Assembly: GCA_965232515.1 (NCBI GenBank)
Contig: CBDDPY010000002.1
Coordinates: 6,240,001 to 6,304,000 of the forward strand
Direction of reading: 5' to 3'
From: Alphaproteobacteria bacterium
GTDB taxonomy: Bacteria; Pseudomonadota; Alphaproteobacteria; GCA-2731375
Length of the DNA: 64,000 bases
Shown: piece by piece, positions 34,679 through 42,531 of the stretch
How positions within the stretch are numbered: position 1 is the first letter of the stretch
Layout of the letters: every line of letters starts with the position of its first letter
Notes under the pieces: generated by a model
What the model was told of the DNA's origin: nothing
Databases searched by the model: none
Seen by the model: only the letters and a program-made list of their open reading frames with translations
Program-made: the position numbers and the translations under genes

Positions 34679-34732
34679 TCAGGGCGTACGAAACAGCGAG
34701 GCGGCCGCGCGCAGGCGGCCGAAATCGCTCCT

Positions 34733-34898
34733 CCGTTCTCTTCCATCCGGACTATCACCGTCGGCCTCGGAATCGCACCGAGTCTGCTGACCCTTCCAGA
34801 CGGGCAATTGAACTGGCCGCTGAAAGGCGCTCGCGGGCTTGAGCGCTGGGCGCTCACACCGCCGGTGGGGACTTCCACCCCGCCCCGAGAACGTGCCG
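34733..34898 (-). ncRNA. FMN riboswitch
   Basis: Minus strand ttctcggggcggggtggaagtccccaccggcggt...agcccgcgagcg...gtcagcagactcggtg...ccgacggt.atagtccggatggaagagaa, upstream of ribH. Confidence 0.95.
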
Positions 34899-38400: not shown

Positions 38401-39951
38401 CTAAAGCTTTGCCTTCTCTACCCGCAATCCCTTGAAGACGCTGAAGCACATCAGCAGCAGCACGAGCGCGAACGGAAAGCCTGTGGCGATGGCGGCTGCC
38501 TGCAACGAGCCCAGTCCGCCGCCCAGCAACAGCGCGATGGCGACCAGGCCCTCGAAGATGCACCAGAAGATGCGCTGCGCCACCGGCGCGTCGATCTTGC
38601 CGCCGGCGGTGATGGTGTCGATCACCAGCGAGCCGGAGTCGGACGAGGTGACGAAGAAAACGATCACCAGCGTGATGCCGATAAACGACAGCACGCCCGA
38701 CATCGGCAGCGGTTCCAGCATCTTGAACAGCGAGAGTTCGGGCGCCCAGGTCTCGATGGTCTGCGTGACGCCGGTATAGCCGTCGTTGACGAATTGGCTG
38801 ATGGCCGAACCGCCGAAGGCGTTCATCCACAGGATCGAAACGACGGTCGGGATAATCAGCACGCAGAAGATAAACTCGCGCACGCTGCGCCCCTTCGACA
38901 CCCGCGCGATGAACATGCCGACGAACGGCGACCAGGAAATCCACCAGGCCCAGTAGAACGTGGTCCAGCCGTGCATGAAGTCGGTGTCCTCGCGGCCGAT
39001 CCAGTTGCTGAGCGGCACCAGGTTCACCGCGTAGGCGACGGCGCCCGTGAAGAAGCCCTGCACGATATCGAGCGTCGGTCCAACGGCGATCACGAAAACC
39101 AGCAGCAGGAAGGCCAACACCATGTTGATCTCGCTGAGCCGTTTCACGCCAGCGTCGAGGCCGGCGAGCACGGAGACCAGCGCCACGGCCGTAATGCCGA
39201 GGATCAGGAGAACCTTGGTGACATCGGTGACGGGAATGCCGAACAGATAGTCCAGGCCGGCGCTGGCCTGCTCGGCACCGAAGCCAAGCGACGTGGCAAG
39301 GCCGAACAGCGTCGCGAACACGGCCAGCGTGTCAATGACATGGCCGAACCAACCCCAGACCGCGTTACCGAACACCGGATAGAACGCGGACCGGATACTC
39401 AGCGGCAGGCCGTAGTTGTAGCAGACGAGCGCCAGCGCCAGGGCGACGACGGCATAGATCGCCCAGGGATGCAGGCCCCAGTGGAAGATCGTCGCCGCCA
39501 TGCCGAGCGAGCGGGCGGCGGCCGGATCGTCGCCGCTCATGCCGAGCGGCGGGTTCTGGAAGTGGAAGACCGGTTCCAGGACGCCGAAGAACATCAAGCC
39601 GATCCCCATGCCGGCGGCGAACAGCATGGCGAACCAGCCGGGATAGGAATAGTCAGGCTTGGCGTCGGGACCGCCGATCCGGACCTTGCCGAGCGGCGAG
39701 ACGATCAGGACCAGGCAGAACAGCACGAAGATGTTGCCGGCGATCATGAACACCCAGTCGAACGTCGACGTCAACCAGGGCCGCAGCGCGCCGAAGAACG
39801 CCGCCGATCCCTCCTGGAACATCAGAACGAAGATCACGAAGGCGACAATGATCACGCCCGAAATCAGAAAGACGGGGTTGTGGATGTCGAGGCCCAGTAT
39901 CCGGATATTGTCCTGACCGACCTCATAGTCGGTGGCGTCGATGCTGCTCAT
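38401..39951 (-). CDS. BCCT-family (betaine/carnitine/choline) transporter
   Basis: WFAMLFAAGMGIGL, HWGLH.W, WTTFYWAWWISWSPFVG.FIARVS.GR, TSSDS; start at 39951. Confidence 0.95.
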   Translation of the reverse strand: MSSIDATDYEVGQDNIRILGLDIHNPVFLISGVIIVAFVIFVLMFQEGSAAFFGALRPWLTSTFDWVFMIAGNIFVLFCLVLIVSPLGKVRIGGPDAKPDYSYPGWFAMLFAAGMGIGLMFFGVLEPVFHFQNPPLGMSGDDPAAARSLGMAATIFHWGLHPWAIYAVVALALALVCYNYGLPLSIRSAFYPVFGNAVWGWFGHVIDTLAVFATLFGLATSLGFGAEQASAGLDYLFGIPVTDVTKVLLILGITAVALVSVLAGLDAGVKRLSEINMVLAFLLLVFVIAVGPTLDIVQGFFTGAVAYAVNLVPLSNWIGREDTDFMHGWTTFYWAWWISWSPFVGMFIARVSKGRSVREFIFCVLIIPTVVSILWMNAFGGSAISQFVNDGYTGVTQTIETWAPELSLFKMLEPLPMSGVLSFIGITLVIVFFVTSSDSGSLVIDTITAGGKIDAPVAQRIFWCIFEGLVAIALLLGGGLGSLQAAAIATGFPFALVLLLMCFSVFKGLRVEKAKL

Positions 39952-40218: not shown

Positions 40219-41034
40219 TTACGCGAGAGGCGTTTCGCTGCTGATGTTGGAAAGATCGCCAAGTTGGCGTTCGTCGAGGTTGTAGAGCACATCGATCAGG
40301 CGTACCCGCAGGCTGCCCGGTCCCGCCGCCTCGGTTGCCGCCAATTGTCCGGCAACGCCCATGATGGCGAGACCGTCGACGGTAGCCGCCAGGGGAGCCG
40401 CGTTTACGGCGCAACAAGCGCCGATCAGGCAGGTGAGCGCGCAACCGAGCGCCGTGACCTTGGTCATCATGGGATCGCCGCCGCCGACGGCGATCACGTC
40501 GCGTCCGTCGGTCACATAGTCGATAGCGCCGGTCACCGCGACCACGGCGCCCGTGCTGGCGGCAAGCGCGCGTGCCGCGTCGACGGCTTCCTTCGAGGCG
40601 TGCGCGGAATCGACGCCCGAGGCCCGGGCAACCGCGTCGTCGCTCAATGTCATGATCTCGGAGCCGTTGCCGCGGATGACCGTCGGCCGCAGCGCGCAGA
40701 GCCGGCCGGCAAGCTCGCGCCGAAAACGGGTGCCGCCGACGCCGACCGGATCGAGCACCCAGGGTTTGCCGTTGTTCACCGCCGCAGTCGCCGCGGCCTG
40801 CATGGCCTCGGCCCGGTCCGCCGACAACGTGCCGATATTGACGGTGAGCGCGTCGGCCTTGGCGACGAACTCCTCGACTTCCTCGATGGCCTGCACCATG
40901 GCCGGCGAGGCGCCGACCGCCAGCATGACGTTGGCCGCCAGGTCCATGGCGACGAAGTTGGTGATGTTGTGGACCAGCGGCGTTCGCTGGCGGATTGCCT
41001 GTAGTGTCTGCCAGGGACTTGCGTCTGATGTCAC
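40219..41034 (-). CDS. thiM: hydroxyethylthiazole kinase
   Basis: PLVHNITNFV, GASPAM, NIGTL, VLDPVG, IRGN.SEI, GVDS, TALGC; GTG start. Confidence 0.93.
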   Translation of the reverse strand: MTSDASPWQTLQAIRQRTPLVHNITNFVAMDLAANVMLAVGASPAMVQAIEEVEEFVAKADALTVNIGTLSADRAEAMQAAATAAVNNGKPWVLDPVGVGGTRFRRELAGRLCALRPTVIRGNGSEIMTLSDDAVARASGVDSAHASKEAVDAARALAASTGAVVAVTGAIDYVTDGRDVIAVGGGDPMMTKVTALGCALTCLIGACCAVNAAPLAATVDGLAIMGVAGQLAATEAAGPGSLRVRLIDVLYNLDERQLGDLSNISSETPLA

Positions 41035-41050
41035 GGCTTTCGCCCCCGGT

Positions 41051-42163
41051 TCACCCGGCGGATCGCAATTGGGCATCCAGCACGGCATGCCGCGCGACCC
41101 GACCCCAGGCGACCGAGCGACGGCGCGCTGACATGTAGGATTCGTAGATCTGCCGCGTCGCTGCGTCACCGGCGGCGGCCTCGGCCAAGACCTCATCGGC
41201 GGCGGCGCGGGCGGCGGCCAGAACGTCGTTCCCGAAGCGCACCAGTGTGATGCCGTATTTCTCTTCGATGCCGTCCAGCGCCAGAGCATTCATCCAATCG
41301 GCCTCGGCCATGCCGCGGGCGTTCTCGGCTTCGCAGACGGCGCTGACAATTTCACGCAGGTCGGCGGGCAGCGCCTCGTAGGCCGCGCGATTGACCAGGC
41401 ATTCGGCCGAGCCGTTCGGCTCGTGAAAGCCCGGCCAGTGATAGAACTTGGCGGCCTTGGCGAGGCCCAATCCGATATCGCTCCAGGGGCCGAGGAATTC
41501 GGCGCCGTCGATCACGCCGGTTTGCAGCGCCGGCAGAATCTCGCCCGGCGGCAGGCTGACCGCCGTGGCGCCGAGCCGGCGCATGACCTCGCCGCCGAGA
41601 CCGGGCATGCGGTACTTCAGGCCCTTGAGGTCGTCGAGGCTGCGGATCGCCCTGATGCACCAGCCGCCCATCTGCATGCCGGAATTGCCAGCCAGAAACG
41701 GTTTCACGCCAAACGGCGCGTAAAGCGCGTCCCAGAGTTCCTGGCCGCCGCCCTGATAGATCCAGGCATTGTGTCCGTCCGGCGTCAGACCGAACGGCAC
41801 CGCGGTGAAGAACGGGCTTGCCTTGACCTTGCCGGCCCAGAAGAACGAGGCGCTGTGGCCCATCTGGGCGACGCCGCGGCGGACCGCGTCGAACACTTCG
41901 AAGGCGGGCACCAGCTCGCCGGCGGCATAGAGCTTGACCGTCAGCCGGCCGCCGCTCATCAGCGTAATGCGCTCGGCGATGCGGCGCGCCGTGGTGCCGG
42001 GACCCGGCGCGTTCTTCGGCCAGGACGTCACCAGGTTCCAGGCGTAGCGGTCCTGGGCGACGGCCGGCGTGGCGGCAATGGCCGCGGCGCCGGCCGCGCC
42101 TGCGCCGAGCAGTGCGCGGCGATCTATCGGGGGGAATGACGGCGGAAGGCGTCGGCGCGACAT
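41051..42163 (-). CDS. TRAP transporter substrate-binding protein (DctP/TakP-like), Tat-exported
   Basis: DRRALL leader, TSWPK, VPFGL, GNSGMQMGGW, GLKYRMPG, IDGAEF.GP, PGFHEP. Confidence 0.9.
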   Translation of the reverse strand: MSRRRLPPSFPPIDRRALLGAGAAGAAAIAATPAVAQDRYAWNLVTSWPKNAPGPGTTARRIAERITLMSGGRLTVKLYAAGELVPAFEVFDAVRRGVAQMGHSASFFWAGKVKASPFFTAVPFGLTPDGHNAWIYQGGGQELWDALYAPFGVKPFLAGNSGMQMGGWCIRAIRSLDDLKGLKYRMPGLGGEVMRRLGATAVSLPPGEILPALQTGVIDGAEFLGPWSDIGLGLAKAAKFYHWPGFHEPNGSAECLVNRAAYEALPADLREIVSAVCEAENARGMAEADWMNALALDGIEEKYGITLVRFGNDVLAAARAAADEVLAEAAAGDAATRQIYESYMSARRRSVAWGRVARHAVLDAQLRSAG

Positions 42164-42221
42164 GGTTAAGGTCTCCCTAATGGGGGAGCCGGCCATCGCA
42201 GAAGCTTTTCGGTCTTTTGCG

Positions 42222-42302
42222 GCCGCTCCCTGCGCTGGCATGACCCAGATCAGGTTCGATGGGTGTGTTCTCAGCCCCCGTACGAGGGGCACCCCAGCCA
42301 TT
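42222..42302 (-). ncRNA. TPP riboswitch
   Basis: Minus strand ggggtgccc...ggctgagaacacaccc.tcgaacctgatctgggtcatgccagcgcaggga. Confidence 0.95.
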
Positions 42303-42531
42303 GACGATGCAAAAATGACAGCTCGCCCCGGTGCTGTCAAAGCAAGAGAATTGCTGGCCTGGATTGAACGCGGCGGAGGCTGTTTCCCGCGGTTTTCCTG
42401 TCCTGGGGGGTCACGGTTTCTTGAACGGCGGTTGTTTTGATCTTCGGGCAGGTTAGTCTCACTTCAACGACGCGCGGCGTCCAACGGGCGCCGGAAAATG
42501 TCGTGCGTGTCGAGCAGGAGATAGGGCTGCC

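Follow-up and report, generated by a model that had tools for sequence, protein, structure and literature searches.

The stretch of DNA analysed here (the window) comprises 64,000 nucleotides of an alphaproteobacterial genome, G000 (G000:C2:6240001-6304000), and carries on its minus strand a thiamine pyrophosphate (TPP) riboswitch, a gene for an orphan substrate-binding protein (SBP) of the TRAP (tripartite ATP-independent periplasmic) class of transporters, here termed P0001, and thiM, which encodes hydroxyethylthiazole kinase. The SBP is a conserved, apparently undescribed member of the TPP regulon, and very probably serves thiamine salvage. The explanation that best covers the data as a whole, and towards which we lean by a modest degree on sequence evidence, is that P0001 belongs to an offshoot of TakP-like proteins that would act as receptor for a thiazole precursor, likely 5-(2-hydroxyethyl)-4-methylthiazole-2-carboxylate (cHET), and would work with the DctQM membrane subunits of a sister system.

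The riboswitch aptamer (THI element) occupies positions 42210-42306 (minus strand) and matches the entire RF00059 model (1-105 of 105) with 66.3 bits against a gathering cut-off of 54.3 (E 8.1e-11). A leader and expression platform, read from the sequence, follows at 42164-42209 (minus), and the distance from the end of the aptamer to the ATG of the SBP gene (42163) is 46 nt; the preliminary description had recognised the riboswitch correctly, but its estimate of about 60 nt for this distance was too long. The SBP gene (41051-42163, minus) encodes a TakP-like protein of 370 aa and of the DctP family, which we propose as a thiazole-precursor (cHET) receptor. It matches PF03480 with 150.6 bits (cut-off 23.4; E 7.7e-44), the sole Pfam family found in a Pfam scan, and NF037995 (TRAP_S1) with 62.1 bits (cut-off 50), and it falls below the cut-off of TIGR00787 (52.8 bits vs 175). 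Its N-terminus (IDRRALLGAG...AVAQD) reads as a twin-arginine signal, in agreement with the initial view of a DctP/TakP-like protein exported by twin-arginine translocation (Tat). The thiM gene (40219-41034, minus; 271 aa, GTG start) begins 16 nt after the stop codon of the SBP gene (spacer 41035-41050), as had been stated, and its product exceeds the cut-offs of the equivalog models NF006830 (303.3 bits; cut-off 180) and TIGR00694 (260.2 bits; cut-off 256.4), in addition to matching PF02110 (259.2 bits). The absence of adjoining dctQM, thiD and thiE genes was likewise borne out, none being present among the neighbouring open reading frames (ORFs) covered by the Pfam scan; furthermore, the genome map of G000 contains no DctQ or DctM gene within 5 kb of the gene for P0001. 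Since all three elements pass curated cut-offs and since the arrangement recurs in other genomes, chance may be set aside, and the riboswitch-SBP-thiM arrangement is real.

Further members of this group were chosen solely by the similarity of their SBP to P0001 (E <= 1e-118), giving 32 carriers in three alphaproteobacterial families, namely G000, G001, G062, G418 and 28 newly fetched loci; the families of G062 and G418 are denoted f39 and f127, respectively. A pattern scan of genome contigs with P0001 returned 2 loci and missed most of the clade, the remainder being obtained by a protein-similarity genome search. Among 41 related genomes a close orthologue (92% identity) was found only in G001, of the same genus, where the riboswitch is present, the contig ends 57 nt after the SBP gene and thiM lies on another contig. 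The best matches to P0001 in the other relatives are 36-50% identical and served as a control, with a riboswitch at none of ten such loci, those of the top homologues at 44-50%. The protein database holds many homologues with 55-79% identity, which derive from Rhodospirillales, Kiloniellales, Tistlia, Algihabitans, Rhodovibrionaceae, Roseibium, Stappia, Breoghania, Rhodobacterales and one Competibacteraceae metagenome-assembled genome; proteins assigned to Roseibium, Stappia, Breoghania, Tistlia and Algihabitans are among those with 57-67% identity. From 400 genomes sampled evenly across the class, four matches at E <= 1e-118 were obtained (G300, G216, G062 and G418), of which those of G300 and G216 were rejected as clade members, being closer to the 51% identical paralogue of P0001 in G000 and showing the general residue pattern, with dctQM adjoining the G300 copy.

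Gene order differs between the families, and the association with thiamine genes is retained. G062 displays the order riboswitch (52.5 bits, E 6.6e-8)-SBP-thiM and G418 the order riboswitch (62.5 bits)-thiM-thiD-SBP, and whole-family searches located the clade SBP in 14 of 23 f39 genomes and 16 of 26 f127 genomes. Genes for thiamine metabolism (thi genes) stand beside the SBP gene at all 28 newly fetched loci, as riboswitch-SBP-thiM-thiE in f39 and as riboswitch-thiM-(thiE)-thiD-SBP in f127. In total, thiM is in cis with the SBP gene in 31 of the 32 carriers (the exception, G001, reflects the contig break) and a TPP riboswitch heads the operon in 30, three of these riboswitches scoring below the gathering cut-off (51.8-54.0 bits, E <= 5e-9). 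DctQ and DctM genes were absent within 1.5 kb of the SBP gene at all 28 related loci. As a control set, 80 metagenome loci were inspected, drawn from the matches listed, which belong mostly to the general clade: thiM or thiD adjoins the SBP gene at three of them and dctQ or dctM at 28, with both kinds at none. The three thi-linked loci, L073 (riboswitch (71.3 bits)-thiM-thiE-thiD-SBP), L080 (thiM-thiE-thiD-SBP) and L075 (thiD-SBP), fall among the six whose SBP, among the matches listed, is closer to P0001 than to the paralogue; the other three are two short contigs and one tie. A linkage peculiar to this one genome, which the preliminary description had named as a finding that would speak against its proposal, is therefore not the case.

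To which ligand the SBP might respond was assessed by comparison of its pocket with that of TakP. The solved structures closest to P0001 are 7UG8, entitled 'Ketoacid-binding protein' (E 3.6e-80), 5CM6 (7.5e-73), 4PET (4.8e-71) and TakP itself (SmoM of Rhodobacter sphaeroides; 2HZK/2HZL, 3.8e-65). According to the accessible portion of the TakP report (PMC1839085), pyruvate forms a salt bridge to Arg177, receives a hydrogen bond from Tyr100 and also binds a Na+ ion held by Gln156, Glu214, Glu240 and the carbonyl of Trp215, within a pocket lined by Y99, F40, V97, V245, A212, A213, P243, T153 and I47. A HMMER alignment relates TakP to P0001 numbering by a constant offset of 8, and on this scale 34 thi-linked SBPs were compared with 24 QM-linked (general-clade) SBPs. 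The preliminary description had noted that the arginine of the motif GLKYRMPG (residues 181-188) is retained, and this residue, R185, indeed aligns with TakP Arg177 and is present in 34/34 thi-linked and 24/24 QM-linked sequences. Glu at position 222 (TakP Glu214) is equally invariant (34/34 and 24/24), Gln at position 164 (Gln156) is found in 33/34 and 24/24, and position 248 (Glu240) is Glu in 21 and Lys in 13 of the 34 thi-linked sequences and Glu in 24/24 QM-linked ones. P0001 itself thus resembles TakP in its DctP-family fold class (by sequence), its Tat-type signal, its carboxylate-binding arginine and the residues of the cation site (Q164, E222 and E248). The Lys248 forms comprise part of f127 plus L075, L080 and L159, and six of the 13 keep Tyr at position 108; the side-chain ammonium of Lys248 may stand in for the cation.

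In contrast to this shared core, the positions that read the ligand diverge between the two groups. Position 108 (TakP Tyr100) is Phe in 28 and Tyr in six thi-linked sequences and Tyr in all 24 QM-linked ones; position 107 (Tyr99) is Leu, Phe, Val or Ala as opposed to Tyr in 24; position 223 (Trp215) is Phe in 34 as opposed to Trp in 23; positions 250-251 (Gly242-Pro243) are Asn-Gly in 34 as opposed to Gly in 22 or Ala in two followed by Thr, Ser, Ala or Pro; position 253 (Val245) is Ala in 20 and Gly in 14 as opposed to Leu in 20; position 55 (Ile47) is Pro in 29 as opposed to Leu in 22; and position 131 (Ile123) is His in 34 as opposed to mostly Met, Leu or Ile. Additionally, E254 is present in 34/34 thi-linked sequences. 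In the 120 best matches from the protein database, R185, E222, F108 and E254 are without exception (120/120 each), N250 and G251 each occur in 119 and Q164 in 93, and the signature H131-R185-F223-N250-G251 is complete in 108; P0001 has P55, F108, H131, R185, E222, F223, N250, G251 and E254. Compared by sequence alignment, 7UG8, 5CM6 and 4PET carry the pocket motif SYYY or SYYW where P0001 has SFFW, and EPG or EPA where it has EPNG. By these alignments the anion-binding core is kept and the ligand-reading part of the pocket appears to have been rebuilt.

This pattern bears directly on the possibility that the SBP is still a generic TakP-like binder of 2-oxo acids, whose place in a thi operon would reflect metabolic coupling, e.g. 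to pyruvate when TPP-dependent enzymes stall. Such a role would suit the nearest solved relatives, as 7UG8 and TakP are keto-acid binders, as well as the retention of the arginine and of most of the Na+ site, but six ligand-contact positions of TakP have changed across the clade (in P0001 Tyr100 to Phe, Tyr99 to Phe, Trp215 to Phe, Gly242-Pro243 to Asn-Gly, Val245 to Ala and Ile47 to Pro), whereas they are conserved in 20-24 of the 24 QM-linked sequences of the sister clade. Moreover, at the loci examined the clade occurs only inside thiM/thiD/thiE operons, and increased import of 2-oxo acids under TPP scarcity would make little metabolic sense; we regard this alternative as very unlikely. Because P0001, with F108, F223, F107, A253, G251 and P55, departs from the Tyr100, Trp215 and small hydrophobic pocket of TakP, we would not class it as a 2-oxo-acid binder.

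The same positions are relevant to a second alternative, in which the SBP binds neutral hydroxyethylthiazole (HET), or a different thiazole acid such as thiazole-acetic acid, in place of cHET. HET is the compound for which ThiM is named, the tyrosine that bonds the carboxylate of pyruvate in TakP has become Phe in 28/34 sequences, and the pocket has gained in size and polarity, with N250, E254 and H131 each present in 34/34. Against a neutral ligand stands the presence of R185 and E222 in all 120 homologues, the conserved arginine being what confers carboxylate specificity on TRAP SBPs according to the available text of PMC4646407; and a thiazole acid without the hydroxyethyl group would, reasoning from the kinase reaction, offer no substrate to ThiM. 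We consider this alternative unlikely, and cHET, which combines a carboxylate with a ring nitrogen at the place of the 2-oxo oxygen of pyruvate and a hydroxyethyl group for ThiM, is preferred for these reasons. PDB entry 4YIC presumably contains picolinic acid (pyridine-2-carboxylate), which has a cHET-like chelating motif; PMC11668362 and PMC11452294 were consulted on this point and no mention of it was found, and the entry was not used as evidence.

The gene content of the carriers was then considered with respect to the half of thiamine that is imported. A genome scan with RF00059 identified three TPP riboswitches in G000. The first precedes genes for an ATP-binding cassette (ABC) ATPase, a permease and an NMT1/THI5-like SBP, i.e. 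pyrimidine uptake of the ThiXYZ type; the second precedes a 431-aa fusion of ThiD (Phos_pyr_kin) and NUDIX (C2:6798319-6801441); and the third is that of the window, ahead of SBP-thiM. The pyrimidine branch of this genome comprises a riboswitch-controlled transporter and kinase, and its thiazole branch comprises ThiM paired with this SBP. ThiC gave no match in G000 (genome completeness 96.25%). The loss of thiG that had been suggested as a check is not seen in G000, in which ThiS and ThiG domains share one 353-aa ORF (C2:1753675-1754409) with no TPP riboswitch, thiO or thiE beside it, ThiE-family genes being present at two sites in the genome; across the carriers, however, 21 of 32 lack a ThiG match and one more has a ThiG frame with two stop codons. 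In the latter (G439:C12:2888-3625) the match contains two in-frame TGA codons and scores 166 bits vs about 330, and thiG looks as if it is decaying in a genome that keeps riboswitch-SBP-thiM-thiE. Thi4 was found in none of five ThiG-less carriers tested. ThiC had no match in 28 of the 32 carriers. The complete genome of G425 has ThiC and no ThiG match, and carries riboswitch-SBP-thiM-thiE. ThiW, reportedly a predicted HET transporter, gave no match (PF09512) in any of the 32 carriers and equally none in 14 control genomes, so that this family search is uninformative.

An orthologue of ThiY, the SBP for the pyrimidine half, is present in 22/22 carriers searched. In f127, 15 of 16 carriers have it on the same strand as the TRAP SBP gene, at 1.5-2.7 kb on the downstream side. 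The order thiM-(thiE)-thiD-DctP-ATPase-permease-ThiY was confirmed in two f127 operons by Pfam scans; in f39 (G062, G425) the ABC parts lie behind separate riboswitches, as they do in G000. Four f127 genomes without the SBP were scanned (G463, G303, G448 and G457; four of six regions fetched). In all four, thiM is accompanied by the genes for the ABC ATPase, the permease and an NMT1/THI5 SBP and a DctP gene is absent; in three (G463, G303 and G457), thiE and thiD were confirmed between thiM and the ABC genes. Displacement of ThiXYZ by the TRAP SBP was considered and rejected, as carriers have both, and from this gene content the SBP would be an addition to the pyrimidine importer and not a substitute for it. 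As the pyrimidine ABC system is present alongside the SBP, ThiM is the sole salvage enzyme left without a transporter.

These data also allow weighing of the view that the SBP binds the pyrimidine half (hydroxymethylpyrimidine (HMP), aminomethylpyrimidine (AmMP), formylaminomethylpyrimidine (FAMP) or an acidic breakdown product), or thiamine or thiamine monophosphate, and widens the range of ThiXYZ instead of serving ThiM. The f127 SBP gene sits directly between thiD and the ThiXYZ-type ABC genes, ThiC is missing from 28/32 carriers, and in 12 f127 carriers the SBP operon has the only TPP riboswitch of the genome, all of which would accord with a pyrimidine ligand. Conversely, in G000 and 14/14 f39 carriers the SBP is paired with thiM, thiE being present or not, rather than with thiD, the 22 carriers searched already possess ThiY as a dedicated pyrimidine SBP, the invariant arginine points to a carboxylate that HMP, AmMP, FAMP and thiamine do not have, and G425 retains ThiC in the absence of a ThiG match; a ligand of this kind appears unlikely. 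An acidic thiazole, on the other hand, fits because the arginine is kept, the pocket is remodelled, ThiXYZ is present alongside and ThiG is mostly absent. As reported in the available text of PMC5899164, cHET supports ThiM-dependent growth of O. tauri and, at sub-picomolar levels, growth of E. coli delta-thiG. Of the thiamine-related compounds, cHET would fit the pocket pattern best. We take the ligand to be probably a precursor of the thiazole type, and the chance that it is cHET itself to lie slightly below even. The initial proposal of a TRAP route for an acidic thiazole, with membrane subunits supplied from elsewhere, is accordingly supported.

For the latter part of that proposal a concrete candidate is now available. 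G000 has a large TRAP complement, with 53 DctM, 43 DctP and 41 DctQ matches, in which three DctP genes have no DctM within 5 kb (those of P0001, of its 51% identical paralogue and of a 35% identical relative) and three DctQ+DctM pairs have no DctP within 5 kb. In G033 and G036, TakP-like SBPs with 46-48% identity to P0001 adjoin a DctQ of the 180-aa class and a DctM of about 530 aa, and the SBP-less dctQM pair of G000 at C2:902205-904346 is 61% (DctM) and 52-55% (DctQ) identical to these, the next-best copies in G000 reaching 33-39% and 31-33%, respectively. An orphan dctQM, for which a search of the genome had been proposed, is thereby found, and it would be the likely source of the borrowed subunits. 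It is flanked by an arginyl-transferase gene on one side and parC on the other, a setting shared with the general SBP of G216, and is 5.4 Mb from the SBP gene of the window. All 32 carriers possess a DctM of the TakP type (29 of them with E <= 1e-120, the other three with about 1e-119). The simplest model, which we rate as reasonably likely from this sequence relatedness and co-occurrence, is that the thi-clade SBP is a second receptor for the sister DctQM.

Two further features of the DctM proteins were observed. Ten DctM matches of G000 (nine loci, one being split in two) lack a neighbouring PF03480 or PF04290 gene, most of them in long open frames of 648-872 aa, and may represent fused or TAXI-type systems. 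In f127, TakP-type DctM proteins (e.g. L201, L203-L208) occupy open frames of 605-650 aa and match the 532-aa DctM of G000 in two blocks (about 70-75% and 56-65% identity) with extra sequence between them.

The presence of a DctQM must also be set against the idea that the SBP works without one, passing its ligand, as a second SBP from another family, to the ThiXZ ABC permease whose genes adjoin its own in f127, or acting as a periplasmic sensor or store. It is true that dctQM stands beside none of the thi-linked SBP genes examined and that the next downstream genes in f127 encode an ABC ATPase and permease. No ABC importer is known to us that uses an SBP of the DctP family, the SBP gene is not beside ABC genes in G000 and f39, and a closely related DctQM occurs in 32/32 carriers, and we therefore hold this idea to be highly improbable next to the proposed sharing of a DctQM with the general SBP.

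The origin of the clade was explored with a quick maximum-likelihood search on the 34 thi-linked and 24 QM-linked SBPs and one distant outgroup. In this provisionally rooted tree all 34 thi-linked SBPs fall on one side of a branch with SH-aLRT support of 100 and a length of 0.44, nested among QM-linked TakP-like SBPs, and their sister group includes the 51% paralogue of G000 and the SBPs of G033 and G036. The best explanation of this topology would be a single origin, the clade being a specialised offshoot of TakP-type 2-oxo-acid TRAP SBPs that was recruited into the thiamine-salvage regulon. The 51% paralogue (C2:1685915-1686946) is itself an orphan and adjoins genes for a biopterin-dependent aromatic amino-acid hydroxylase and a glyoxalase/dioxygenase-type protein, neighbours which suggest an aromatic 2-oxo acid as its ligand.

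Taken together, the following mechanism is proposed, in which the ligand, the membrane partner and the mode of the riboswitch are those that we infer from sequence. When cellular TPP is low, the riboswitch would permit expression, probably at the level of translation, and the SBP would leave the cytoplasm via the Tat pathway. In the periplasm it would capture an anionic thiazole precursor, cHET being the likeliest, whose ring N=C-COO- would mimic the O=C-COO- that is bound in TakP through Arg177 and a chelated Na+. The loaded SBP would then dock on the DctQM of the related general TakP-like system, here that at C2:902205-904346, and the co-transcribed ThiM would phosphorylate the imported thiazole, after which ThiE would join the product to hydroxymethylpyrimidine pyrophosphate (HMP-PP). 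Combined into a single reading, this would be the first dedicated bacterial cHET receptor and the first TRAP-type system for a vitamin precursor, with the thiazole N=C-COO- replacing O=C-COO- at a retuned Arg/Na+ site, and with a second, riboswitch-controlled SBP using the DctQM of the general keto-acid SBP (one membrane unit, two receptors and two regulons); we put this combination forward tentatively, as possible rather than probable.

Several observations weigh against the mechanism as proposed. In f127, and in those f39 genomes that were checked, the TakP-type DctM is already accompanied by a general-clade SBP of its own, and because this DctQM type has its own SBP in the other families, its presence does not discriminate between the models; the assignment of the DctQM would draw on relatedness and co-occurrence only. 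The residues of the cation site vary, with Lys at position 248 in 13/34 sequences and a residue other than Gln at position 164 in 27/120. Two carriers of one genus, G429 and G430, have no riboswitch upstream of the SBP gene even at a permissive threshold, and plus-strand genes lie between their SBP gene and the thiG operon. An intact ThiG match is present in 10/32 carriers, so that in these the system would be one of salvage rather than necessity; G000 is among them, and with its ThiS-ThiG ORF it is not obviously a thiazole auxotroph. The location of the f127 SBP gene between thiD and the ABC genes fits, as far as position alone is concerned, a pyrimidine ligand equally well. Lastly, the carriers are close relatives within three families, so their counts are not independent events, and the tree stems from a quick search only, its long outgroup branch rendering the rooting provisional.

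Within the leader, a C-rich stretch (about 42182-42188) is located just upstream of the Shine-Dalgarno sequence GGGAGA (42172-42177), with which it is able to pair, and no terminator-like hairpin was found between the aptamer and the SBP start codon. In an alignment of 12 leaders (G000, G001 and ten f39 genomes) the aptamer core is invariant, and by RNAalifold the 3' strand of P1 (GCCG) is paired in 11-12 of 12 sequences with a CGGC that lies downstream and does not vary, and the 5' strand of P1 in 10 of 12 with the Shine-Dalgarno-proximal GGAGCC; the minimum free energy fold of the single leader sequence is no better than that of shuffled sequences (z 0.67). These features point to a riboswitch that likely acts on translation. 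The riboswitch leader also contains an in-frame ATG at 42194-42196 (minus), 33 nt upstream of the assigned start, and the corresponding position in G001 reads ACG; since the upstream ATG is not conserved in G001 and the downstream one has a Shine-Dalgarno sequence, the ATG at 42163 is taken as the start of the SBP. In three RNA libraries of a relative with 95-99% identity, contigs cover the leader and the 5' end of the SBP gene and also span the SBP/thiM junction and the spacer between thiM and the gene downstream of it, and one polyA raw-read run had no reads on the locus. The contigs are compatible with transcription of the unit and lend it weak support, as strand, level and a single transcript are not readable from them and carry-over of DNA is possible.

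The gene downstream of thiM encodes a BCCT-family transporter (38401-39951, minus, ATG at 39951; PF02028, 603.8 bits). It lies 267 nt from thiM on the same strand, with no terminator-like site found between the two, and a BCCT gene is again next to thiM, on its 3' side, on the separate contig of G001. The transporter was rejected as membrane partner and as a member of the conserved module, as it adjoins thiM only in this genus; in G062, G425, G438 and G451 the BCCT gene is far from the SBP gene. Elsewhere in the window, a flavin mononucleotide (FMN) riboswitch (RF00050, 107.9 bits; 34731-34896, minus) precedes a gene for 6,7-dimethyl-8-ribityllumazine synthase (PF00885; 34169-34648, minus), and constitutes a second vitamin riboswitch at 7 kb from the TPP riboswitch.

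Comparison with known systems places the SBP apart from each of them. From TakP it differs not only in its pocket but also in its genetic context, as the gene of P0001 has no adjoining dctQM, is under a TPP riboswitch and is probably co-transcribed with thiM. ThiXYZ with ThiY is alike in being a TPP-riboswitch-controlled uptake system for a precursor that is present in the carriers as well (in f127 within the SBP operon), and would be the counterpart for the other half of thiamine, but it is of the ABC type, with an SBP of PF09084 and a permease and ATPase of its own, whereas the TRAP SBP belongs to PF03480 and has no membrane genes of its own. Other thiamine transporters (ThiBPQ, ThiT, ThiV, CytX, YkoF/YkoEDC, ThiPerm and Omr1) similarly have their genes behind TPP riboswitches beside salvage enzymes, yet none of them is a TRAP component. 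The earlier remark that thiamine-related transporters are not of the TRAP type holds, P0001 matching PF03480 alone and thus lying outside the ThiBPQ/ThiXYZ, ThiT, ThiV, CytX, PnuT and ThiW families. The accessible part of a 2024 compilation of B1 genes employed in a field study (PMC10881298) lists thiB, thiT, thiY, thiV, cytX, ykoF, thiPerm and omr1 and no thiazole or cHET transporter. Orphan SBP genes are also known among members of the TTT (tripartite tricarboxylate transporter) family, the Bug proteins and AdpC, which, according to the available text of PMC5812351, lack nearby membrane genes and presumably share a few membrane units; these differ from the present case in being of the TTT family and not DctP-type TRAP, and here a specific sister DctQM can be named. 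In the literature searched, no paper was found in which thiamine, thiM, HET or cHET is connected to TRAP or DctP, and supplementary tables (PMC3766115, PMC11223231) or the TPP regulons of RegPrecise could list such a case; the available portion of the 2018 TRAP/TTT review makes no mention of thiamine, and that of the main text of the 2013 survey of riboswitch regulons mentions no TRAP transporter, the supplementary tables of this survey and of the OarX paper being places where one might be listed.

Among aquatic and host-associated microbes, many are unable to synthesise thiamine and subsist on precursors of it, and cHET is used at picomolar or lower levels (PMC5899164, in its available text). 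If the proposed role is correct, the SBP clade, with its simple residue signature, would provide a marker gene by which the uptake of thiazole precursors could be traced in genomes, metagenomes and metatranscriptomes, as well as a purifiable protein with which the affinity for cHET could be measured. TRAP biology would gain a new ligand class, a riboswitch-controlled member and a tractable case of two SBPs on one DctQM, and it would follow that a keto-acid receptor can be turned to vitamin salvage by a few changes in its pocket.

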